Virus record (IMG/VR): IMGVR_UViG_3300010413_000009
Span: 1-17,628 of that record
Direction: 5' to 3' (one strand)
Length of the DNA: 17,628 nucleotides
Origin: a virus
Shown in pieces: positions 1 through 17,628 of the stretch (within the stretch, counting starts at the first letter, position 1; every line of letters begins with the position of its first letter). Position numbers and translations under genes: made by a program. Below the pieces are notes generated by a model. That model had not been told where the DNA came from and searched no databases. It saw only the letters and a list, made by a program, of their open reading frames with translations.

Positions 1-938
1 CAGTTTTCAATGATGAGTCCGGCCTGTACGTATGACATGTCCTTGCCAAGCAAGGACACCGCGCCTGCGCCAACGACCCAGACGTCAGTGACCCCTTCCA
101 CAATGATGCAGAACGGCAAGGTTTTTGCCATGTCCGCACCGTACAGCATTAGGCGCTTGTTCGTCCGAGGACGGTTGTAGTATTTTGGCTGTCCAGCCGC
201 TTTCCAATCTATGTCGTAAGGCGGGCGTGCCTGCCATCCCACCATTTGACCATCCATGTAGATCGGAATGATCATCTTGCCGACAACGGCCGGAAATTCC
301 AACGATTCATTACAGTACGACACGTCGTATCGTTCCCCGACTACCTGTGGCGATATTCCGCGCCCCAGCAGGTACTGGCATGCGATATGCTCCACAGGCA
401 AGTTGTCCAATCGCTGACAGTGCCCTGGTAAGTCCACCACGCCCAACGAAAGGTTCTCTGTCTTGCCCGGACGAACAGTTACTCGTTGGCCATGTAATTC
501 GCGCCCGACGCCGCCATAGATCATGTTCCGGAGCGCTTTACGGTTTGCTGGATTTTCCATGCATCCTTCGTTGTAGCAGACGCACATCCACCAGAAGCGA
601 TCGTCCTTATTGTAAAGTGGGTCTGTGGGATCTAATCCTACGCCCCAGCGGTGATTGATCCATAACCGATGGCGCGTATCTACAGCACCGCGCTGGAGAC
701 AGAACGGGCAGCAAACACGGTAATACTCACCAGAACTCAATGGAGAATACCTGTTGTGCCCGCCTACGAACTCGTAGCCGCCGCCGAACATCGCCTCGCC
801 TTGCTTAGCAATTACGACGCTACCGAACTGGCGTACCAGTCGCTCATATAGCATTGGATTGAGCACGCTGGCAGTGTTATTGCCAACATCCCATTCCAAT
901 CCAGCGCCGTTATTAGGCCCGAGTGTTGTGGTATCCAT
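1..938 (-). CDS. DNA primase, DnaG/T7 gp4-like (N-terminal ~312 aa; 3' end runs off the left edge of the window). Not in the supplied ORF track because no stop lies within the window
   Basis: Manual translation of the minus strand from ATG 938..936 is open to position 1. It begins MDTTTLGPNNGAGLEWDVGNN... Zinc ribbon: CCPFC (aa 76-80), then CVCYNEGC (aa 119-126), roughly 561..713. TOPRIM-type motif LPFCIIVEGVTDVWVVGAGA (E-G-x-x-D) at about 75..118. The ATG overlaps the TAA stop of the upstream helicase gene (TAATG at 936..940), which indicates translational coupling. Confidence 0.8.
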   Translation of the reverse strand, partial: MDTTTLGPNNGAGLEWDVGNNTASVLNPMLYERLVRQFGSVVIAKQGEAMFGGGYEFVGGHNRYSPLSSGEYYRVCCPFCLQRGAVDTRHRLWINHRWGVGLDPTDPLYNKDDRFWWMCVCYNEGCMENPANRKALRNMIYGGVGRELHGQRVTVRPGKTENLSLGVVDLPGHCQRLDNLPVEHIACQYLLGRGISPQVVGERYDVSYCNESLEFPAVVGKMIIPIYMDGQMVGWQARPPYDIDWKAAGQPKYYNRPRTNKRLMLYGADMAKTLPFCIIVEGVTDVWVVGAGAVSLLGKDMSYVQAGLIIEN

Positions 939-2554
939 TACCTATCTATCACGACCTGTGGCGCCCTGTGTGCCACGCTTGAATGAAACTTGGAGACATC
1001 TGCCCGCGGCACAAGTCGCCGTGTCACATCATCGACTTGGTAGTGCTTCGAGACATCCACCATGCGACAGTACGCACCATCAATCTTAAGGATCACGGGA
1101 GGCATCGACTCCCCGTGTCGTGTCTTCGTTGCGGCGAACTGACATACGCTATGCTCTTTGTCCTTCGTGCTCAATGCAAAAGCATACCATGCGTGGTCAG
1201 CGAACGATGAACACCACTGTGCTTCTGCGTGATGCGGCAACTTCGCCGGGGGCCGATCATTCAGGCTTCCCTTGAGCTGGTGCGCAATCCACACTGTGCA
1301 GCCGAATGGCGCCGCGATCTCCTGCTTCGCACGATTGACCAGGTTCTGCAGTTGTAGTGACATACCGCTGCCGTCTATGCGCCCCTCTTCAGCCTGAAGG
1401 TAATTTGCCACCATTGCGCCAGCCCAGTCAAGCACAACCATACGGATTGGCATTCCGCGATTATGCCGGATCGCCGTCAGCTTCTGGGCGACTTCCGTGA
1501 CGTGGCCTTTCCCGCCTTTCGCCGGGTTATGATGATCAAGCAGCACGAGGTACTTATTCAGCCACGGACGTGCTTGTTCCAGCCGCTCGGTCTCGCCCAA
1601 CATTTCCGCCGGGTTAGTCGCGCTTGAATACATCGCTTTCTCATAATCCTCAAGGCGGCCGATGCGGCTCAGTTCTGAGTCATCTTTGAGAAAGCGCAGA
1701 CGATCCTTCAGTACGCGCGCACTATACGACGCCGCACGGATTTGGATCATATCCAGATCGTCTTCATAGCTGACAAATACGATAAGGCCCGGTTCCCCGT
1801 CCGCAGCGCGGCGTGTCGCCTGGTGCTGCAATCGCGCTGTGGAACATGCGAGCTGCATTGACAACGTCGTCTTACCGCCCCCGGTAGGTCCAATGAGGAC
1901 ATTGCAATCACCTGGCTGACTGCCGCCACCCATTAGAACATCAACAAAATCGACTCCCGTCGGCCATAGTGGTTTAGCCGCTTTGGCCCACCGCGTTGGT
2001 AACGTGGTGGTGGTTTCCTCCACGCTGCCCAATGCCGCGATATCGATTATGCGCTGCTGTGCCCGTTCAATGATTGCCGGTAGGTTCGCGACGCGCTGTC
2101 CGGCTGCATACGTGATCGCTTGCCGCAGCTCTTCCTCAGGTCCGCGGTCAATTAGAATCTGCCGCAGGATGAATTTGGCTTCGTGCGGTTCAAGCGCCTC
2201 GGGCGGATTGACCTGTGCGTCGAACATGAATTTGAGAATGTGCTCAGCATTCTCGAGGATCTTGCCGCCGGTGGCCGGATCCGCACGCGCGAGCGGATCA
2301 TTCTCGATGTCCGTCAGGACGCGCACGGCCAGCGACTCGTACTTCGGTAGCTGGGCATGCTGTTCGTAGAAGTCCTTTACCTCGCGCCAGATATGTCGAT
2401 AGGGCATCTCGCTCGGCCGAGAGAACATATCCGGATGCAATTCTGTGAAACACAGCTGAAAGACCGCCGGGTCCTGTATCGCGTGCATCAACAGAAATTC
2501 AATGGCAAGCCCGTTGATTTCGAATGGCGCCTGCGGTTGCTTTGTCATTTGCAT
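938..2554 (-). CDS. Replicative DNA helicase, DnaB/SF4 (RecA-fold) family
   Basis: 538 aa, ATG start. Walker A LIGPTGGGKTTLS at about 1865..1891. Walker B-like hydrophobic-D stretches: LVLLDHHNP and RMVVLDWAGAM. The N-terminal ~200 aa helical domain precedes the ATPase core, as in DnaB and gp4 helicases. SD GAGGT lies 8 nt upstream. The stop overlaps the primase start. Confidence 0.8.
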   Translation of the reverse strand: MQMTKQPQAPFEINGLAIEFLLMHAIQDPAVFQLCFTELHPDMFSRPSEMPYRHIWREVKDFYEQHAQLPKYESLAVRVLTDIENDPLARADPATGGKILENAEHILKFMFDAQVNPPEALEPHEAKFILRQILIDRGPEEELRQAITYAAGQRVANLPAIIERAQQRIIDIAALGSVEETTTTLPTRWAKAAKPLWPTGVDFVDVLMGGGSQPGDCNVLIGPTGGGKTTLSMQLACSTARLQHQATRRAADGEPGLIVFVSYEDDLDMIQIRAASYSARVLKDRLRFLKDDSELSRIGRLEDYEKAMYSSATNPAEMLGETERLEQARPWLNKYLVLLDHHNPAKGGKGHVTEVAQKLTAIRHNRGMPIRMVVLDWAGAMVANYLQAEEGRIDGSGMSLQLQNLVNRAKQEIAAPFGCTVWIAHQLKGSLNDRPPAKLPHHAEAQWCSSFADHAWYAFALSTKDKEHSVCQFAATKTRHGESMPPVILKIDGAYCRMVDVSKHYQVDDVTRRLVPRADVSKFHSSVAHRAPQVVIDR

Positions 2555-2558
2555 TGCA

Positions 2559-3296
2559 TTACCTCAGTTTGGCCATCAGTGTGATTTCCGCATCAGTCAC
2601 CAGCTCGACCGGCAGTGCCGTGTTCCAGGTTGCAACATAGCCCATTGGATCCGTCAGGAACTGCTGCATTGCTGCTTCTTTGAAGTGGTCTGCAGCCGGC
2701 AATTGCTCGCTCGTCGCGATGCAGTATCGGAACAGCGGCGGCAACTCCAGCATTGTGTTCATGAGAACATAATTCCAGAGTTGCCTGTTACTGTAGTGCG
2801 GGAATGTCGTCAGCGCTTCGTCTGCGCAGCATTCAAACTCGAGATTGGCCGATGCCAGTTCCTGCTGCAGCGATGCGTCTGCGAACCGTTGGTAGTTCAG
2901 GTAGCGGTCCATTGCTTGTTGCGTATCGAAGGTACCCGGATTTGGCGCCGACGATAGCGTATCATCCCTGGCTATGCTGTACCGATATTGCGCGTGAATG
3001 TATCTCTCGAAATTATCCACGTCGTGCACCAGTAAGAATCGTGCGATACGCATCCAGAGCGGTTTCACGTCCTTTGGACCAGTGAGGTATTCGGAGCGTC
3101 CGGATACCTGCACACTGCGGGCCTTGGCCTCCCTGAGATTGGCGGCAGCCAGTCGATACGCGGCACGATATGTCTCGTTCTGCTGCGTTGGTGTAACTAG
3201 TTCCGCGCTCTCGGGTGGAGGCTGTTGCATGTAGAGATTACCCTCACGAATACGGCCGCGCTTAAACTCATTGACTGTATCATTAGAGTCTTGCAC
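2559..3296 (-). CDS. Hypothetical protein (245 aa), positioned between the two helicase genes
   Basis: ORF with a GTG start preceded by SD GGGAG (8-nt spacer). The stop is 4 nt from the helicase ATG. It overlaps the 3' end of the SF2 helicase gene by 14 nt. No recognisable motifs. Confidence 0.55.
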   Translation of the reverse strand: MQDSNDTVNEFKRGRIREGNLYMQQPPPESAELVTPTQQNETYRAAYRLAAANLREAKARSVQVSGRSEYLTGPKDVKPLWMRIARFLLVHDVDNFERYIHAQYRYSIARDDTLSSAPNPGTFDTQQAMDRYLNYQRFADASLQQELASANLEFECCADEALTTFPHYSNRQLWNYVLMNTMLELPPLFRYCIATSEQLPAADHFKEAAMQQFLTDPMGYVATWNTALPVELVTDAEITLMAKLR

Positions 3297-4812
3297 GTCG
3301 TCTACTCCCAGGTTGCCAAATCGTGCCGTCGCTATTCAGCTGCGTCCAGCCCCGTTTGTGATACATCCGCCGGCGATTATGCGATCGCGAATGAAAGCCC
3401 GTGTCCCAGATATCGTTGCAGTCTACCAGTATGCCCGCAGTCTTGTTCGTTGCGGGATCATTACGGCAAACACGGCCAGGGATTTGCACATTGAATGTGT
3501 CGCTGTCCCCTGCCTCAGCGCGTATCAGCACGTTGAGTGAGTCGAAACTGACCCCTGTGGACCAAACTCCCGTAGCGATTACACACATCTCTCGCCGACG
3601 TTCAAATGCCTGCCCAAGCTCGATACGTCGCTGCGTCGTCATTTCTTCGTCGGGCGCCATTAAGCCTTGCTGGACGTACGATCTTCGTTTTCCTTCGTCC
3701 AAGGCACCTTCTGAATAGCACAAGGTGGCCTCTGGAAGACAACTGCGTAGGTGCATGGCATGCTCCACGGTGTCGACCATTATCAGGACTTGGAGGCCGT
3801 CTTGTAAGAACGAGCGTGCCGCATCTGCTATCACCTGATTCCGCCATGGGTTCCTCCATATTCCGTGTCGCTTCCTTGCTACTAACTGCTGAAACCTCTC
3901 AGCCGGATTGGCACCTGGATCGATATCGAGCCACTGCACATATACGTGTGCTACAAGTCCCAGCGCCTCAGCTTCTTGCTGTGTCATGTGGAAAATGCGT
4001 GGGCCGAAGATGCCTTCCATTCGATGGTGCGCATTGTCCAGTCGCATATCAGGCGTTGCTGTGAAGCAGTAGTTTCGTGACGTCCAGTATCGGCCAAGCA
4101 TGCCAGCGAGCCGATCAGTCATCAATTCATGCGCTTCATCAGCGAGCAGTATATCCGCGCTGAAATCCGAATGGTGCAAACTGTCTGCAGTGTAGACGGT
4201 AACGCGTCGATTGCGTTCCTTCTTGCCGCCGCCGATCTGGCCCATACTTGGTACCCATCGTGTGAGCAATGTCCGTATGCGCCTGACAACGTCTTTCCGT
4301 TTGGTAACGATGTCGATCTTGGCGTGCGGATACATACACGCAATCATGCCCATCAGATGCGTCTTGCCGAAAGCCGGCGGTGCATCTATCAGGCCGTAGT
4401 CGTGCATGTCGATCTGGGCCAGACACACATCCTGTTTGGGCCGTAGCTCGAACCGCTCGAAGATGCGGTCCCACTGCGCAGTATAGATGCGCTCGGCTTT
4501 AGGTTCATCCTTGTCGATGTAGATGACCTCGTAGCCCGCGCGCTGTAGGAGTCCACGCACTCGCGGATAGAAACCCTTCTGACAGACGAAACGTCCCTGC
4601 GAATCGTACTGATACAGCCGACGCTGCTCGTGCTGTTTTATCTCATGTGGACGCCCGTCGTAAGGGCCTCTATGTGCACCGTACTCGAAGTGTAGGTGTG
4701 TGTAGGTGAGCGGTTTCTCTAGTTGTCGATACGTCTTCGGCGATAATGGCTGCACGCCATCTGCAGAGACTTCGATGAACGGACCGCCCTTTTTAACAAT
4801 CGCCCTAACCAT
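3283..4812 (-). CDS. Superfamily 2 DEAH-box DNA helicase (UvsW/Res-subunit-like)
   Basis: 509 aa, ATG start. Motif I DAPPAFGKTHLMG (Walker A). Motif II LLADEAHEL (DEAH). Motif III FTATP. Motif VI QIPGRVCR. Confidence 0.8.
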   Translation of the reverse strand: MVRAIVKKGGPFIEVSADGVQPLSPKTYRQLEKPLTYTHLHFEYGAHRGPYDGRPHEIKQHEQRRLYQYDSQGRFVCQKGFYPRVRGLLQRAGYEVIYIDKDEPKAERIYTAQWDRIFERFELRPKQDVCLAQIDMHDYGLIDAPPAFGKTHLMGMIACMYPHAKIDIVTKRKDVVRRIRTLLTRWVPSMGQIGGGKKERNRRVTVYTADSLHHSDFSADILLADEAHELMTDRLAGMLGRYWTSRNYCFTATPDMRLDNAHHRMEGIFGPRIFHMTQQEAEALGLVAHVYVQWLDIDPGANPAERFQQLVARKRHGIWRNPWRNQVIADAARSFLQDGLQVLIMVDTVEHAMHLRSCLPEATLCYSEGALDEGKRRSYVQQGLMAPDEEMTTQRRIELGQAFERRREMCVIATGVWSTGVSFDSLNVLIRAEAGDSDTFNVQIPGRVCRNDPATNKTAGILVDCNDIWDTGFHSRSHNRRRMYHKRGWTQLNSDGTIWQPGSRRRARL

Positions 4813-4832
4813 GCTATCTCGTAGTGCTGGTA

Positions 4833-4861
4833 TTGACAGCGAACATACGAAGGGCTAGGAT
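4833..4861 (+). promoter_or_regulatory. Sigma70-like promoter TTGACA-N17-TAGGAT on the plus strand
   Basis: TTGACA at 4833..4838 and a 17-nt spacer, then TAGGAT at 4856..4861. The same -35/-10 pair and spacing recurs on the minus strand at 5441..5469. Confidence 0.4.
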
Positions 4862-4867
4862 CGTGGG

Positions 4868-4938
4868 AAGAATCGCCCCAACGACCATACCCTTTGGTCG
4901 CGAATTACCGGAGCCCTGCTGCTACAGGGCTCCTTTTT
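4868..4938 (+). ncRNA. Candidate ~70-nt plus-strand small RNA, antisense-oriented in the helicase / 156-aa-gene intergenic region
   Basis: Bounded by the promoter at 4833..4861 and the intrinsic terminator at 4910..4938. Contains an internal hairpin CGACC-N9-GGTCG (4882..4900). No coding capacity. The overlapping plus ORF 4824..5015 runs through the terminator, so it is unlikely to be a gene. Confidence 0.3.
4910..4938 (+). terminator. Rho-independent terminator, plus-strand oriented
   Basis: Stem GGAGCCCTG, loop CTGCTA, stem CAGGGCTCC (perfect 9-bp stem), followed by TTTTT. On the minus strand the same hairpin follows the TAA stop of gene 4937..5407 but has no U-tract. It therefore works as a terminator only for plus-strand transcripts. 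Confidence 0.6.
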
Positions 4939-5407
4939 ACGTCCTACATGCAGTCTTGTCTGCTTGCTGCCCCTGCGCCGGGGACACGTCTACTACTTCG
5001 AAAGTACCGTACTGATTATCCTTCCTGTAAGGACTGATACCGCGGTAACATCCGGCGATTCGCATAAGCTCTCTGAAGTCGTCAGCCGGTAATGAGGATG
5101 GTATAACTGCACGCACGACAATCGTATCTCCTGGGTAGAACGCTTCGTGCACAGTATACTGACTCGGCGCGTAGAAGCGCTTGTATTCGCGCGGCTCGCC
5201 ATCAATGACAGGATCCCAATCGATGTCTTTGACAGCAGCATGATGCCTATTGACGACTTTAGCCGCGTAACGCATCAATGCCTGCCACCAGGTAGGCAAG
5301 AACATTACGCGGCCGTCTGGCGCGTGGAGCATCCTGCTTATCCGCTTGTGCCTACAGTCTCCCAGTGAGTGCTGATTGAAACGAATCGTAACTGCCATTT
5401 CCCTCAT
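4937..5407 (-). CDS. Hypothetical protein (156 aa)
   Basis: ATG start with SD GGAAGG (6-nt spacer). It lies directly downstream of the TTGACA-N17-TAGGAT promoter. No recognisable motifs. Confidence 0.6.
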   Translation of the reverse strand: MREMAVTIRFNQHSLGDCRHKRISRMLHAPDGRVMFLPTWWQALMRYAAKVVNRHHAAVKDIDWDPVIDGEPREYKRFYAPSQYTVHEAFYPGDTIVVRAVIPSSLPADDFRELMRIAGCYRGISPYRKDNQYGTFEVVDVSPAQGQQADKTACRT

Positions 5408-5440
5408 CGCTGGCCTTCCTTGTCGCCGGCGATTCCGGCA

Positions 5441-5469
5441 ATCCTAGTCGTCCCTGCTGCACGTGTCAA
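5441..5469 (-). promoter_or_regulatory. Sigma70-like promoter TTGACA-N17-TAGGAT on the minus strand, driving gene 4937..5407 and downstream genes
   Basis: Minus strand: TTGACA (5469..5464), then the 17-nt spacer cgtgcagcagggacgac, then TAGGAT (5446..5441). An A-tract (gcgaaaaagtga) lies immediately upstream of the -35, like an UP element. The predicted transcription start is near 5434, about 27 nt before the ATG at 5407. Confidence 0.55.
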
Positions 5470-5495
5470 TCACTTTTTCGCGGCCAACAGCCACG

Positions 5496-5540
5496 GGCCA
5501 CAAATTGTGGTGCGCATGGATACCGGCCACTAGATGTGGT
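5496..5540. promoter_or_regulatory. Two copies of the inverted-repeat site GGCCAC-N5-GTGGT (candidate operator or activator sites)
   Basis: Site 1 is GGCCACAAATTGTGGT at 5496..5511 (core CCACAAATTGTGG is a perfect 13-bp palindrome). Site 2 is GGCCACTAGATGTGGT at 5525..5540. Centres are 29 bp apart. The sites lie about 27 and 56 bp upstream of the -35 of the minus-strand promoter. Confidence 0.45.
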
Positions 5541-5587
5541 ACAGCTACTCCAGTTTAGCAGGCATCCACGTGACACACCAGCTGATG

Positions 5588-6619
5588 TCAGATCATCCCC
5601 GTCATCACTTGGTGCAGCTCGTAAGCCTCGACCTCAATCGGATGCTGAAAGAAGTCTGCGGGACGGAACAATGCTGCATGGCGCTCTGGTGTTGCATCAG
5701 ATTCGCGATACAGCTCACTGAGCCATGTGTGGCGCAGAAAGGCAATAAAGCGCTGAGAAGCGCGCAGATCCGCGATCACGGGATCCGCTGGTGCCCGCGC
5801 GGATGATCCCAATCCGAGTTTGCTGCCCCACGCACGCCACACGAAGTCGCACGGCGCGACGCCTGGCAATGTTGCGTCCTCTACTGGAACGGGCTTGTTG
5901 ATTTCAAACCGCTCGCGGATATCATTCTCCAGCCGGCTGTTCTTCCAACAATTCATCACCACGGCACAGCGATCGTGATATCGCCAACGCCGTTTACCGC
6001 CAGATACGCCTGCTTGCGTTTTCGGATGTAGCCCAAGCCACGCTTCAAGCTTGCCTGTGCGATCTGGCGCGCATTGATCGATGTACCATCTAGGATCGAG
6101 TATGTATGAGAGCAATCCGGCGACAGAGACCCTGTCGAGGCTCTGGATGAAAGATAGCGGACGCCATGCTGGATGCGCGCGCAGCGCGGGAATGATGGCC
6201 GCGGTGATCGCATTCTGCTCGGCAATACTCTTGAGAGCTGCCACGCACAGTGAGTACGCCCGGTAATCGGCCTCAACCACCTCATGAAAACCACCAATGC
6301 TGGGTGCGCGCTGAAACAGCAACATCCGCATCAGCAAAGCTTCTGGCTTGCGTCGCTCGCGCTCAGTCTTGCCGATGAGCGGAGTACACACTTGCACGCT
6401 GCCTATCAGGCCGCGTTGCTTACGGTCATACAGTTGTGTAATGAGCCTCGCGTTCGAGCTGGCGCCGATCACACGGATGCGATCTATTCCGTCTGCTTCG
6501 CCGCTGTCTAGGAATTCCTCCGGGCTACGACTGGACCATCGCACATCGTGGTTATTGGCCAGATACCAAACTCGACCGGCATGCACATGTATGTTCAGTA
6601 CCTGCATAGTCGTTGTCAT
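5588..6619 (-). CDS. Hypothetical protein (343 aa), translationally coupled downstream of the SbcC-like gene
   Basis: ATG at 6619..6617 overlaps the TGA stop of the SbcC-like gene (ATGA). A possible nucleotide-binding-like stretch is RIRVIGASSNARL. No confident family assignment. Confidence 0.6.
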   Translation of the reverse strand: MTTTMQVLNIHVHAGRVWYLANNHDVRWSSRSPEEFLDSGEADGIDRIRVIGASSNARLITQLYDRKQRGLIGSVQVCTPLIGKTERERRKPEALLMRMLLFQRAPSIGGFHEVVEADYRAYSLCVAALKSIAEQNAITAAIIPALRAHPAWRPLSFIQSLDRVSVAGLLSYILDPRWYIDQCAPDRTGKLEAWLGLHPKTQAGVSGGKRRWRYHDRCAVVMNCWKNSRLENDIRERFEINKPVPVEDATLPGVAPCDFVWRAWGSKLGLGSSARAPADPVIADLRASQRFIAFLRHTWLSELYRESDATPERHAALFRPADFFQHPIEVEAYELHQVMTGMI

Positions 6620-14200: not shown

Positions 14201-15097
14201 TCAGCGAACGAGCACGGCCTCCGCGCACTGATTCGCCATTTCGAGATTGGTCACCGCGCCGCGGATCTGGGTCTGTGCCCGCTGCAGGAACTCGATCTGG
14301 AGTCCGATACGCACATCCGAATTGAGCAGCATCTGGGTGGTCCCAGCATGCATCATCTCCTCCGTGACAGCTAGCGACGACTCGTCGGCTTCCACCGGCA
14401 TGCGCGGTTGTGCAGCCTCGGCTACCGTCACTAGCGCGGACGCGGCATCCGTCAACTCCGCGGAAGTTCGGATCTTATGCAGCACCTCGTAGGCGCGCTG
14501 GATAGCCAGAGGACTAGCAGTATCGTCCGTAACCGCACAGGCGTTGGCCTCTGCCAGGCACGCATCGATGTTGATGAGGTGCCCGGCGGCCTTCTCGCGC
14601 TCGACGATCATGATGAACGCATCCTCGTACGTCACCGGCAGTGCGTTAGCAACGTGCTTCGCGCGCTGCGCCACGGCCCGCTCCTTCGCGGATCGCGCCG
14701 CAAGCGTGCGGCCGTTATGCTTCGCCTTGGAATCGTACACGATGAAGATGCGATTGTCATGATCGTGCTCATCCCTGAACAGCGCAACAGCCGCATCATT
14801 GCCATTCCTCTTGAACTCGGCGATGACCTGGTTTCGGCACTGAATCGCGGCAGCGTGGGCGATAGGTTTGCCCACGTACCTCTTCTTCAACTTCCTGAAG
14901 GTGTGGCGCACGCCGTCGAGACTGCTGGCACCTGGATGCTCGCGATAGAACGCGCGGAGCTCGTTCCGATGCTTCGACCGGCCGGGATAAGTCAAAGGAT
15001 CCCATCCGGACTTGCCCTTCTTCTTGCGCTTCGTGCTGTGCGACGGTGACGACGGACGGTCGTTCCGGAACCGGCGTCTTGCAGTGGCAGATCTCAT
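14201..15097 (-). CDS. Hypothetical basic protein (298 aa), candidate DNA-binding protein
   Basis: ATG with consensus SD AGGAGG (6-nt spacer). The N-terminus is strongly basic and NLS-like: RRRFRNDRPSSPSHSTKRKKKGKSGW. The rest is Ala-rich and helical. Confidence 0.65.
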   Translation of the reverse strand: MRSATARRRFRNDRPSSPSHSTKRKKKGKSGWDPLTYPGRSKHRNELRAFYREHPGASSLDGVRHTFRKLKKRYVGKPIAHAAAIQCRNQVIAEFKRNGNDAAVALFRDEHDHDNRIFIVYDSKAKHNGRTLAARSAKERAVAQRAKHVANALPVTYEDAFIMIVEREKAAGHLINIDACLAEANACAVTDDTASPLAIQRAYEVLHKIRTSAELTDAASALVTVAEAAQPRMPVEADESSLAVTEEMMHAGTTQMLLNSDVRIGLQIEFLQRAQTQIRGAVTNLEMANQCAEAVLVR

Positions 15098-15118
15098 AAC
15101 TTTCCTCCTGGGAAATAC

Positions 15119-15191
15119 GGGCGCATCGGCGCCCTGGCAGTGATTGCGACCACGATGATCGCGTTAGGAGTTTGACGCACACCGATGTGCG
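15119..15191 (-). promoter_or_regulatory. Two hairpins in the 115-nt intergenic region upstream of gene 14201..15097
   Basis: Hairpin 1 is GGGCGC-ATCG-GCGCCC (15119..15134). On the minus RNA it is followed by GUAUUUCCC and then the SD AGGAGG. Hairpin 2 is CGCACA-CCGA-TGTGCG (15176..15191). Both share a GCGC-rich stem and a 4-nt loop. Confidence 0.35.
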
Positions 15192-15212
15192 CCAATATGC
15201 CTCTCCACGTCC

Positions 15213-15650
15213 TCATTTCTTCTTCTTTGTTTTTGGTCTGGGCTCCTTCTTGGATTTGGGGTTAGGTTCGGATCTGGTGATTATGATCTTCTCAGGCAGA
15301 TCATCGAGCCTGCCTTGTGCACGGTCTTTTTCCATCGCATGGGTCTTAATATCCTGCTCCAGTCCTCGGTGAATCGAGGTAGTGGCTTCATACACTTTAA
15401 CCGTCTCGGACAGCGCCATGAGTGCTTGAATCACTTGCTCTCCGCGGCTCAAAGCATCCGGGATGACGGATTTACCGTAACGCCCTGACACTGCGCTCGA
15501 ACGGAATTCAAGCATACAGCCAGGGAGTGTGAAGTGGATGACATACGACGCCGAATCGACCGATTGCGTGATGATCTCGGCATTGACGATGAGTTTTGTC
15601 GCCGTGCCTGGCGGGATTGCCTCAGGCAATACCGTTTTCCTAATAACCAT
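15213..15650 (-). CDS. Hypothetical protein (145 aa) with a Lys-rich C-terminal tail
   Basis: ATG with SD AAGGAG (7-nt spacer). Overlaps the upstream gene by 11 nt. The C-terminus is EPNPKSKKEPRPKTKKKK. Confidence 0.6.
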   Translation of the reverse strand: MVIRKTVLPEAIPPGTATKLIVNAEIITQSVDSASYVIHFTLPGCMLEFRSSAVSGRYGKSVIPDALSRGEQVIQALMALSETVKVYEATTSIHRGLEQDIKTHAMEKDRAQGRLDDLPEKIIITRSEPNPKSKKEPRPKTKKKK

Positions 15651-16071
15651 TCATGATCTCCTTGACTGCAAGCAGTTCGGAATCCGGTACTGGGATTGGG
15701 TTGAGCATGCCTCCGTAACGCATGCGCAGTGAGACCAACTCACCGTCACGTACCAGATTGCCACGGTACCTTATAATGCCGTATCCATCTGCGAGTTTAA
15801 TGCGCAGCGTGCGCAGTTCGGCAACCAGCTGTATGCAGTTTTCGGAATCAGCTGAGATGTAGAATCGTTTCGCGTCCAGCGTGCCCCACCAGCACTTTTC
15901 TGCCGTACGGTACTCGAGATCGCCGATACGGCCCGCGGCTTCGCGAAAGATGATCTTCTGTCGGTCTTCTTGTACCGCATTGATTCCGTACATCACCGCC
16001 GTGGTAATGAAGGCAACAAGCAACACCACGATGAGCCAGTTGTGGAAAGTTCGACCCGCAGTCGATGCCAT
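15640..16071 (-). CDS. Membrane-anchored protein (143 aa from ATG), with an N-terminal signal-anchor/TM helix
   Basis: The track ORF starts at a TTG at 16098. The first ATG (16071) has SD AAGGAG at a 7-nt spacer. Hydrophobic segment WLIVVLLVAFITTAVMYGI near the N-terminus. The remainder is predicted to be extracytoplasmic. Confidence 0.55.
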   Translation of the reverse strand: MASTAGRTFHNWLIVVLLVAFITTAVMYGINAVQEDRQKIIFREAAGRIGDLEYRTAEKCWWGTLDAKRFYISADSENCIQLVAELRTLRIKLADGYGIIRYRGNLVRDGELVSLRMRYGGMLNPIPVPDSELLAVKEIMNGY

Positions 16072-16282
16072 CCGAACACTCCTTGTTCTCGTGATCAAAG
16101 TCTGGAAAATGCCTATCCCGGCCTACCCAAAGTACCCAATTTCACAATATATCGGGCAAATCAGGCACGCGTGACAGAAGTCGTTACGGCCGCACGAGTT
16201 ATGACGAGAAATCGTCACTCCGGCATACCACCTCAGAGGGGAAACGTACGGCTAAATGTGCTGGGTCTTGCCTATTTTAACA

Positions 16283-16298
16283 TACGGGTTAACCCGTA
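16283..16298. promoter_or_regulatory. 16-bp perfect palindrome TACGGGTTAACCCGTA (candidate operator), within a promoter-like element on the minus strand
   Basis: Perfect dyad symmetry centred on GTTAAC. On the minus strand it sits in the 16-nt spacer between GTTACA (-35-like) and TATGTT (-10-like). The surrounding 16260..16420 is AT-rich relative to the rest of the window. Confidence 0.4.
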
Positions 16299-16381
16299 GT
16301 TGTAACTCGAGGCAGTACAAGAACTTAGCTGAGGTCAAAAATGATACCCCCCTTTTGGGATTCGGGAATTTGAAATAGTAT

Positions 16382-16445
16382 ATATTAGTCCTCATTTCAT
16401 TCGGACTAATATCGCCGCCGACCGGACGGACGAGATGTCCGTCCG
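16382..16445 (-). terminator. Tandem perfect hairpins at the operon boundary downstream of the 29-aa peptide gene
   Basis: Hairpin A is ATATTAGTCC-N11-GGACTAATAT (16382..16412; 10-bp stem). On the minus RNA it is followed by AUACUAUUUC. Hairpin B is CGGACGGAC-GAGAT-GTCCGTCCG (16423..16445; 9-bp stem). Orientation as a minus-strand terminator is inferred, and the U-tract is modest. Confidence 0.35.
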
Positions 16446-16646
16446 ATCAGGTGGCGTGATGCCCCTCTTTTTTACTATCCAGACGTTGAAGCCTTCTGCG
16501 TACCCAGCGACGGTATTCCGGACCGAGGCGTGGATACGTAAAGTCTCGACGCACCACTGGTGTTGCGCGCGTCTGTTCTGGCGAATTGCCCCGTTTGCAT
16601 TGTTGTTCGACTGCCCGCTGACGCGCAGCCTGTAGATCTGGATGTG

Positions 16647-16736
16647 TCAGAGCAGAATCGCCGCGAGTGCAATGATCAGAATAGCAACCAGTGTGAGCAC
16701 CTCGAAGATGCTCATCTTGCCGTGCTTCCGTGTCAT
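16647..16736 (-). CDS. Small hydrophobic membrane peptide (29 aa), unannotated in the ORF track because it is below the size cutoff
   Basis: Manual translation gives MTRKHGKMSIFEVLTLVAILIIALAAILL*. It has a cationic N-terminus followed by a single TM-length hydrophobic helix. Consensus SD AAGGAG lies 6 nt upstream of the ATG. It starts 11 nt after the TAG stop of the upstream 2-TM protein gene. Confidence 0.5.
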   Translation of the reverse strand: MTRKHGKMSIFEVLTLVAILIIALAAILL

Positions 16737-16749
16737 GATTGTCTCCTTG

Positions 16750-17307
16750 CTACGAGTACCTTTTGAGATAGCCGGCAGTGATCACGACGCCGAGTAACCC
16801 TGCGCCGAGAATCGAAAGCGCGAACGTAAACTGATTCGGGAAGAGAGAGATCCTCGGCGGTGCGGTAACCGACGGCGACTGCCCTTCGTCGATTAGGGTC
16901 TCCCGCAACTTCATCAGTTGATTCGAGATCTCCAACGGCTTCGCATCCGTTGGAAAATGTTCTAGCTCATCGTATGCGCTCTGGATATTGTCGTGCCAGA
17001 ACTTCACATCGCATTTTGGTGTGTAGATGAGCAGTTGCGACTGCCCACTAGTACAACCGCGAATTTTCATTCCGGCCAGCGCGTACTCGAGCTCCTGCTT
17101 TGCCAGCCCGATCGTGTTAGCATCGGCAGCGCGTTTCAAATGTCCGCCAATGTCGCGCTCGTAGCTGAGCCACGCCAGCCCGAGCATCGCCATGAGTACG
17201 CAGAACGGCAGCCAACCGATGGTTACCCAAATCCACGACAGCTCCGATTGGCGCCGTCGCCTTCGCGTTCCGTAATAATCCTGCATACGTTCACTCAATG
17301 TCTTCAT
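16750..17307 (-). CDS. Membrane protein with two predicted TM helices (185 aa from ATG)
   Basis: The track ORF begins at a GTG at 17325. The ATG at 17307 has SD GGAAGGAAGAG. This ATG overlaps the TGA stop of the upstream gene. Basic cytoplasmic N-terminus (GTRRRRRQ). TM1 WIWVTIGWLPFCVLMAMLGLAWL. A ~110-aa central domain. C-terminal TM FALSILGAGLLGVVITAGYL. Confidence 0.6.
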   Translation of the reverse strand: MKTLSERMQDYYGTRRRRRQSELSWIWVTIGWLPFCVLMAMLGLAWLSYERDIGGHLKRAADANTIGLAKQELEYALAGMKIRGCTSGQSQLLIYTPKCDVKFWHDNIQSAYDELEHFPTDAKPLEISNQLMKLRETLIDEGQSPSVTAPPRISLFPNQFTFALSILGAGLLGVVITAGYLKRYS

Positions 17308-17576
17308 CAAAACTCTTCCTTCCACGTAGCCCGCCAGACAATCCGTTCTATCAAGAGCTCGTCCGCTAGAAGCACGTCGTATGGACTGTGCGACTTATCT
17401 CTGAGTCCACGCGCACGACACCGCACGATTGCTTTGGTATCGCGATTCGTGAATCGAGCGAGATATGCGCGCGCCGTAGCGAACGACTTGAATACGTGCC
17501 ATCCAGACACGTACCATGTCTTCGCGTCGCGCACATGCTTATGTTCAGCCTCAAGCCACTGATTGCGCGGCAACAC
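17307..17576 (-). CDS. Hypothetical protein (89 aa; GTG start as given by the track)
   Basis: ORF whose stop is coupled (1-nt overlap) to the start of the downstream membrane protein gene. An alternative-frame ORF at 17366..17596 was rejected. No recognisable motifs. Confidence 0.4.
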   Translation of the reverse strand: MLPRNQWLEAEHKHVRDAKTWYVSGWHVFKSFATARAYLARFTNRDTKAIVRCRARGLRDKSHSPYDVLLADELLIERIVWRATWKEEF

Positions 17577-17628
17577 ACGCGTGCCGCCGTTGCCATGGAA
17601 CAGCGTCTTCAGTCGTCTACGCGCGTCG

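Follow-up and report, generated by a model that had tools for sequence, protein, structure and literature searches.

A 17,628-nt stretch of DNA from the IMG/VR virus record IMGVR_UViG_3300010413_000009 (positions 1 to 17,628; hereafter, the window) carries, on the minus strand like all of its other genes, a 29-codon open reading frame (ORF) immediately behind the gene of a 185-residue protein with two transmembrane (TM) helices. Here, we propose, with a probability of roughly 0.55, that this mini-ORF is a real phage gene and that its product partners the two-TM protein at the host envelope, where the pilin handling of pili or of the type II secretion system (T2SS) would be the likeliest target. 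Initial annotation of the window, made from the sequence alone, had grouped these two genes with two downstream genes into a block of four membrane proteins. The four genes do not form one conserved cassette, but two units with a conserved, structured spacer between them (Table 1), and scans against Pfam, PHROGs, NCBIfam, and PADLOC assigned none of the four proteins to a family.

Signals and conservation of the mini-ORF

The peptide encoded by the mini-ORF has a short basic N-terminus and a single TM helix with Glu12 at its edge and no tail beyond it; the best 19-residue window reaches 2.93 on the Kyte-Doolittle scale. The ORF had been described as preceded by AAGGAG at a distance of 6 nt and as too well signalled to be random. 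Both statements hold: the ORF is found at 16736..16647 and its Shine-Dalgarno (SD) sequence at 16748..16743, and among the 149 ATG-started ORFs of 20 to 45 codons in the six frames of the window it is the only one that combines an SD with a hydrophobic stretch of TM grade. Not one of 100 first-order Markov simulations yielded an SD-preceded small ORF of this grade. AAGGAG occurs six times on the minus strand of the window and never on the plus strand, and half of these copies (16748, 16084, and 15663, minus strand) precede the consecutive genes of the 29-, 143-, and 145-residue proteins. Most other genes of the window have ribosome binding sites weaker than the perfect AAGGAG. The initial reading of 16647..16736 was confirmed, and an identical sequence is found in three independent assemblies. 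The mini-ORF had also been taken to be unannotated, but both the JGI/IMG and the Logan gene calls include it, unnamed ("hypothetical").

We compared the window with five syntenic lineages (L006/L007/L049, L008/L051, L050, L105, and L058). Positional equivalents of the mini-ORF stand behind the orthologous two-TM gene in L008/L051 (29 residues; MKQQLPPFMEMMILFAAILIGLALIFGVN in L008) and in L050 (32 residues, MTREPQTTVFELVILAAAILVGLYIIFGVNGF), and in L008 and L050 they overlap the stop codon of the family gene as ATGA. In all three mini peptides, a Glu borders an uninterrupted hydrophobic helix on its N-terminal side; an acidic residue at this position was found in 3/3 mini peptides versus 15 of 330 control TM segments. 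The conserved core of the window two-TM protein is 63 to 67% identical to those of L008, L050, L006, and L105, which are 69 to 77% identical to one another. The mini-ORF thus occurs on both sides of the deepest split and is most simply regarded as ancestral, with losses in L006 and L105; L058, which also lacks it, lies further out than this group. Conservation of the ORF, on which the initial annotation had made its proposal depend, is therefore seen in L008/L051 and L050 but not in L006, L105, and L058, from which we conclude that the mini-ORF is dispensable or replaceable.

An alternative explanation is that a mutation severed a C-terminal third helix from the two-TM protein and that the mini-ORF is a non-functional leftover, which persists by chance or is fading. 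Its loss in three lineages and the weak similarity of the peptides (8 to 9 of 27 to 28 residues are identical between that of the window and those of L008 and L050) would fit a leftover. However, three lineages at about 37% core divergence keep the ORF intact and almost constant in length, and each copy starts with a proper ATG that either follows a consensus SD or overlaps the preceding stop codon as ATGA. The changes include synonymous ones, and the proportion of nonsynonymous differences (pN) is below that of synonymous differences (pS), with a pN/pS of 0.5 to 0.7 at saturated synonymous sites. Moreover, the Glu is conserved, and the window holds no other small ORF of this type. We consider a leftover unlikely. 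Judged from sequence comparison, the mini-ORF is very probably a real gene that is maintained, albeit dispensable.

A type-I toxin-like membrane peptide was one of the roles first suggested for the mini-ORF product; such a toxin would be expected to be restrained by an antisense or overlapping RNA. Peptides of the Hok, Ibs, and TisB type are of similar size, with a single TM helix and a cationic N-terminus, and the window peptide resembles them in all three respects. However, the basic N-terminus is not kept in its homologues, and the mini-ORF is co-oriented with the upstream gene, which it follows at a distance of 13 nt with a strong, unmasked SD. The ATGA overlap in two relatives, L008 and L050, points to translational coupling rather than to a stand-alone toxin with an antisense RNA. 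Neither a promoter-like site in the vicinity, on either strand, nor an Rfam antitoxin RNA was detected. We consider a type-I toxin very unlikely.

The two-TM protein family and its fused third helices

The 185-residue protein comprises a basic N-terminus (RRRRR), TM1 (residues 26-44), a four-helix bundle (residues ~45-138), TM2 (residues 160-178), and a short basic C-terminus. AlphaFold2 modelled this architecture with high confidence (predicted local distance difference test [pLDDT] score 95.8, predicted template modelling [pTM] score 0.84), with a predicted folded bundle of ~110 residues between the two TM helices, and matches to the model were confined to generic four-helix-bundle folds. 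Periplasmic four-helix-bundle modules, such as cytochrome b562/BRIL and the 4HB-type sensor domains of chemoreceptors, are among the closest known systems. The bundle is probably periplasmic, because the N-terminus is basic and because a cytoplasmic domain, that of ribosome-recycling factor (RRF), is fused N-terminally to the family member P0001.

In an exhaustive phmmer search, 544 cluster representatives were retrieved at E<=1e-3 and 370 at E<=1e-10. The window protein shares with them significant full-length similarity, including the motifs between the two TM helices, and most representatives have 160 to 220 residues and the two-TM layout. GHLKRAADANT, GFWYxNLK, SNxLMKLRETLLD, and VTxP are strongly conserved motifs (alignment A1). 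The family as a whole is likewise absent from Pfam, PHROGs, NCBIfam, and PADLOC. IMG/VR scans with the 185-residue or the 143-residue protein alone found nothing, and an alignment was needed as the query; with a concatenated query, a word-indexed protein search retrieved nothing but the RRF fusion P0001, and not even the self matches. Members are spread over 43 IMG/VR contigs, the longest of 673 kb, and over metagenome contigs; among genomes, they were found only in contigs of metagenome-assembled genomes. The genes adjoining them vary and include methylases, RecA, RusA, NDK, and the anti-defence proteins Apyc1 and Tad8; among these neighbours, no recurrent partner and no pilus genes were detected. 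A fused three-TM member, P0004 (L106, Logan SRR13776244, positions 3935-4513), is 49% identical to the window protein and has bacterial-looking neighbours (a MASE1-PAS sensor, a CoA-binding protein, and NAGPA). Phages may not be the only carriers of the family.

The RRF fusion P0001 (L004 positions 3547-4602; JGI 3300045911), in which the RRF domain is N-terminal to the two-TM four-helix-bundle module, would be a membrane-tethered RRF. Its phage contig also holds ClpS and several tRNAs. Positions 4770-4970 of L004 look tmRNA-like by eye (GGGGCGATTCGACC … GGTTCGACCCCCACCA), with no call by ARAGORN or Rfam, and positions 5456-5550 contain a 95-nt tRNA match with an apparent insertion or intron.

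In 19 of the 150 best family representatives (~13%), a third TM helix is fused C-terminally after a short basic loop, exactly where the mini-ORF falls in the window. Concatenates of the two-TM protein and the mini peptide align collinearly with these fused proteins, with a Glu column (E197 of the concatenate) conserved to at least 90%; the acidic residue of the fused helices lies at the cytoplasmic edge. Many of the fused tails have a prepilin-type motif, such as GSGFTLVEGLVVLAIIGVLISLVAG in P0088, SSSSFTLVEVLTVLAIIALLGS in P0104, and SSFSLIELMIVIAIIAILVG in P0031. Those of P0031 and P0088 pass the gathering score of PF07963 (N_methyl), and those of P0031, P0088, and P0055 pass the cut-off of TIGR02532, with near misses in three others. 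Both models describe the prepilin domain of type IV pilins and T2SS pseudopilins. With this domain, the window peptide has in common a short basic leader, a hydrophobic helix, and an early Glu (MSIFE...). The prepilin motif calls for Gly at -1, a hydrophobic residue at +1, and Glu at +5; read as HGK|MSIFE, the window peptide has its Glu at +5 from Met8, but Lys at -1 and Gly at -2. It also differs from the prepilin domain in having no globular domain. A comparable register, Q|TTVFE, can be placed on the L050 peptide, and none on that of L008. In the fused relatives, the motif is located C-terminally behind a 170-residue two-TM protein, unlike in the known architecture.

Position, size, topology, and one Glu suggest that the mini-gene might be a split-off third helix, at no demonstrable sequence homology. 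Besides the absence of the mini-ORF from L006, L105, and L058, members of the same phage group, several results weigh against the proposed partnership and its pilin-related target. In comparisons with a hidden Markov model (HMM) of the fused helices, the three mini peptides scored 1 to 2 bits, like ordinary TM segments. PF07963 and TIGR02532 did not match the window, L008, or L050 peptide even at E<=10. Of eight canonical fused tails, a single one carries Gly at -1, which makes cleavage by prepilin peptidase doubtful. Finally, none of the family members examined is adjoined by pilus or secretion genes. A specific similarity of the mini peptides to the fused third helices was thus rejected by the HMM, which lowered the "split pilin helix" to a hypothesis, and the window peptide was not assigned to the pilin-type helices, as it lacks a PF07963/TIGR02532 match. 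Behind ~80 other family genes, no comparable ORF adjoins the stop codon; the few small hydrophobic ORFs near them start 34 to 149 nt further on and are unrelated.

Alternatively, the peptide might act alone on a membrane protein of the host, as PfsE does on PilC or MgrB on PhoQ, with the two-TM protein as a mere neighbour. Small membrane proteins that act with larger partners include MgrB and SafA (on the two-TM sensor PhoQ), KdpF, CydX, and AcrZ. The arrangement in the window resembles these in that a single-TM peptide of 29 to 50 residues stands beside, or acts on, a multi-TM partner, and PhoQ in particular in that the partner combines two TM helices with a domain that is probably periplasmic; it differs from them in that there is no homology, the 185-residue partner is without a cytoplasmic output domain, and the pair is phage encoded. 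A precedent for solo action is PfsE (PA0721) of the Pseudomonas filamentous phage Pf4, an inner membrane peptide of ~30 residues with N-in topology, which is known to prevent the assembly of pili; it binds the pilus platform protein PilC and mediates superinfection exclusion, and the binding requires its conserved aromatic motif YxWGW (PMC8764522). The window peptide shares with PfsE its size, phage origin, and predicted N-in topology, and the dispensability of the mini-ORF in relatives that keep the two-TM gene would be compatible with solo action. However, there is no sequence similarity to PfsE, and YxWGW is absent from all three mini peptides. Whereas PfsE acts solo in a filamentous prophage, the window peptide is tied to the two-TM protein in a large phage with lytic-type replication genes: the mini-ORF was never found away from the two-TM gene, and the helix fused at the same position in 19 of the 150 members argues for physical association. 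We therefore regard solo action as rather unlikely and favour a partnership of the peptide with the two-TM protein.

Spacer, downstream genes, and phage context

Table 1. Features of the mini-ORF region, in window coordinates; TM segments are from hydropathy, in residues.
Feature	Position	Strand	Remarks
136-aa gene, 3' part	17307..17628	-	Cut by window end; L001 9591..10001
185-aa two-TM gene	16750..17307	-	17307..16750 in reading direction; stop TAG; TM 26-44 and 160-178
Shine-Dalgarno AAGGAG	16743..16748	-	1 nt past the 185-aa gene stop; 6-nt spacer ACAATC, then ATG at 16736
29-codon mini-ORF and stop	16647..16736	-	MTRKHGKMSIFEVLTLVAILIIALAAILL; starts 13 nt beyond the 185-aa gene; TM 10-28
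Non-coding spacer	16072..16646	-	575 nt; between two transcription units
Hairpin H1	16420..16448	-	GC-rich 12-bp stem, 5-nt loop; compensatory changes in L006 and L008
Hairpin H2, ATATTAGTCC-GAATGAAATGA-GGACTAATAT	16382..16412	-	Covarying stem of 9 to 10 bp, conserved loop of 11 to 12 nt
Conserved block AGCTAAGTT... with small hairpin H3	~16297..16330	-	Limits approximate; compensatory changes in L006 and L008
143-aa gene	15640..16071	-	Own AAGGAG 7 nt upstream; N-terminal TM 12-30
145-aa gene	15213..15650	-	Lys-rich tail, C-terminus ...KSKKEPRPKTKKKK; 11-nt overlap with the 143-aa gene; no TM

The spacer behind the mini-ORF had been described as an AT-rich gap. It is mildly so, with a G+C content of 47.5% compared to 51 to 63% in neighbouring windows, but it is not empty. 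Its 575 nt fold with a z of -4.83 relative to shuffled sequences and align blockwise with the spacers of L006 and L008 (alignment A3), apart from window-specific insertions of ~170 nt (16449-16646) and ~110 nt (~16100-16290). No tRNA and no Rfam family were found in it. A decayed pilin gene was considered as its origin and discarded, as a tblastn comparison with every protein encoded in the syntenic loci revealed no remnant. JGI called a plus-strand ORF for 66 residues at 16435-16635; its Trp/Cys-rich product and its lack of conservation suggest that the call is spurious.

The most distinctive element of the spacer is hairpin H2, which recurs in L006 (4637-4665), L008 (4585-4613), and L105 (~1313-1342). 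Across the four lineages, none of the nine stem pairs is broken, and at each of the nine positions more than one type of pair occurs; at five positions this is due to L008 alone, in which the entire stem is different. These pairs were tabulated by hand, as MAFFT misaligned the L008 hairpin. The loop has the consensus GAAYG(W/TA)ARTGA, and in L105 the stop codon falls inside the stem. H2 matched no Rfam family. A repeated promoter or terminator element was considered and rejected: H2 occurs once per locus, and an IMG/VR scan with the exact pattern retrieved only the L006/L007 contigs. With its large conserved loop and weak U-tract, H2 is unlike a typical terminator; the conserved loop suggests an element recognised by a protein. 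The hairpins are situated between the unit of two-TM gene and mini-gene, which they follow directly, and the next gene with its conserved 5' leader (TTGATCNC…AAGGAG); the upstream transcript probably ends or is processed at them.

Across the spacer, the initial annotation had placed a type-II membrane-anchored protein, whose gene overlaps by 11 nt that of a Lys-tailed protein, and both features were verified (16071..15640 and 15650..15213). The 143-residue protein has its TM helix at the N-terminus and a beta-rich C-terminal part; its AlphaFold2 model was unusable (pLDDT 48.5). The Lys-tailed 145-residue protein is soluble and lineage specific: the syntenic loci hold no homologue of it, and a DUF5983 protein fills its slot. 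It can thus hardly be counted as part of a block of membrane proteins. Residues 44-141 of the 143-residue protein are 35% identical to a 141-residue protein of L006 (tblastn), whose N-terminus, MRRAFTVVELLVVIAIVGILASLLVG, is recognised by PF07963 (22.8 bits, cut-off 21.2) and TIGR02532 (25.3 bits, cut-off 16.3) and scored 32 bits with the HMM of the fused tails. The window protein has lost the leader Glu (Glu5 is replaced; …RTFHNWLIVV…) and matches neither model. Used as queries, it and its L006 homologue returned self matches only, and near other family members no pilin-like ORFs were found outside the phage group of the window.

In L008, the corresponding slot (4791-5066) has a prepilin-type start, MLREFTLVEVLV, without a hydrophobic helix, with a TTG start after AAAAGGAG; from its sequence, this resembles a pilin-like gene that has decayed or been remodelled. 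The leader in this slot is degenerate where the mini-ORF is present and canonical in L006, which is devoid of the mini-ORF; we make no claim from these three data points.

The window derives from a large uncultivated phage. Three independent assemblies carry the same sequence with 99.94 to 100% identity, a 101-kb contig is recorded in the protein clusters of both the 143-residue protein and the 29-residue peptide, and a syntenic relative sits on a 226-kb contig. Megablast with the whole window yielded no nucleotide match to GenBank phages. Neighbouring genes encode a DnaB-like ATPase, an SF2 helicase, a Rad50-like ATPase, an Mre11-like phosphoesterase, and an HldE-like kinase/nucleotidyltransferase, and NAD-ligase, NT5C, and NDK genes lie upstream. 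The HldE-like protein (11143-12648, minus strand), a 501-residue fusion of a PfkB-type kinase and a cytidylyltransferase-like domain reminiscent of ADP-heptose synthase, is encoded amid the phage replication genes and could serve sugar-nucleotide synthesis for the modification of DNA or surfaces. The 136-residue gene directly ahead of the two-TM gene is without a Pfam or PHROG match, and in L006, L050, and L105 a homologue of it likewise stands ahead of the family gene. Its product carries the motif WYxSGWHVF…CRARGL, and the gene is translationally coupled to the two-TM gene through TGATG, in which its stop codon overlaps the ATG of the latter by 1 nt. The two genes may thus form part of one functional unit.

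This context also bears on a lysis cassette, which had been suggested for the region and in which the two-TM protein would be the holin, the 29-residue peptide an antiholin or pinholin-like protein, and the 143-residue protein the i-spanin. The clustering of small phage membrane proteins and the i-spanin-like type-II topology of the 143-residue protein fit such a cassette. However, neither an endolysin-type domain nor any other lysozyme, amidase, or peptidase domain was detected in the window or in the examined 20 kb of its parent contig, and no lysin recurs among 150 neighbours of family genes, in which VanY was matched once. When all minus-strand ORFs of 15000-17628 were scanned for a lipobox, no plausible o-spanin lipoprotein emerged in or beside the 143-residue gene. 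Holins have short inter-TM loops, in contrast to the highly conserved, folded bundle of 110 residues predicted here, and the peptide ends with its TM helix, without a charged tail. Furthermore, the region is one of replication and nucleotide metabolism genes rather than of late or structural genes, and the conserved structured spacer divides the supposed cassette into two units. A lysis cassette is thus very unlikely.

A possible role at the host envelope

Under the favoured reading, in which the mini peptide partners the two-TM protein, the peptide would insert with its N-terminus in the cytoplasm and its C-terminus outside and pack against TM1 and TM2 of the 185-residue protein. Together, they might constitute a split three-helix membrane anchor beneath a periplasmic four-helix bundle. 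The close spacing of the two genes in the window and the ATGA coupling in relatives suggest that the pair is co-produced, and it may close an early or accessory operon (NDK, the 136-residue gene, the two-TM gene, and the mini-gene) that ends at the conserved hairpins. We would expect such a complex to target the host envelope for purposes other than lysis. The pilin-handling machinery of the type IV pilus or T2SS may be the likeliest class of target, given the prepilin-type fused helices, the prepilin-type homologue of the next gene, and the PfsE precedent. The complex may act in superinfection exclusion, or be otherwise directed at the host envelope or the pilus.

It is tempting to speculate further, though this is a tentative idea that we deem improbable as it stands, that this widespread family of phage proteins presents a "headless pilin" helix on a four-helix-bundle carrier and thereby jams type IV pilus or T2SS assembly, with the 143-residue slot providing a second decoy. 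Such a helix would resemble the alpha1-N helix of pilins, including the key Glu, with no globular head and usually no cleavable Gly at -1. It would be either fused C-terminally to the carrier or, as in the window, supplied as a separate 29-residue microprotein, and could dock to prepilin peptidase, the platform protein, or the membrane pool of pilins. Jammed assembly would result in shutdown of the pilus receptor and superinfection exclusion.

A small phage membrane protein with a partner is known in kind; new here are the undescribed family of the partner and the unusual C-terminal prepilin-type helix in some of its members. Phage microproteins below the comfort limits of gene callers are rarely validated, whereas the mini-ORF is backed by comparison with relatives and its presumed partner is defined. 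The family of this partner, with at least 544 sequence clusters and a very confident structural model, has come without a functional clue. Some members terminate in a prepilin-type helix, the opposite end from where such a helix is expected, and in the lineage of the window a separate mini-gene occupies this spot; together, these provide a testable entry to pilus or secretion interference. If this interference is true, it would represent a new and common strategy of receptor shutdown by phages, and the mini-ORF would be a natural case of gene fission yielding a one-helix subunit.

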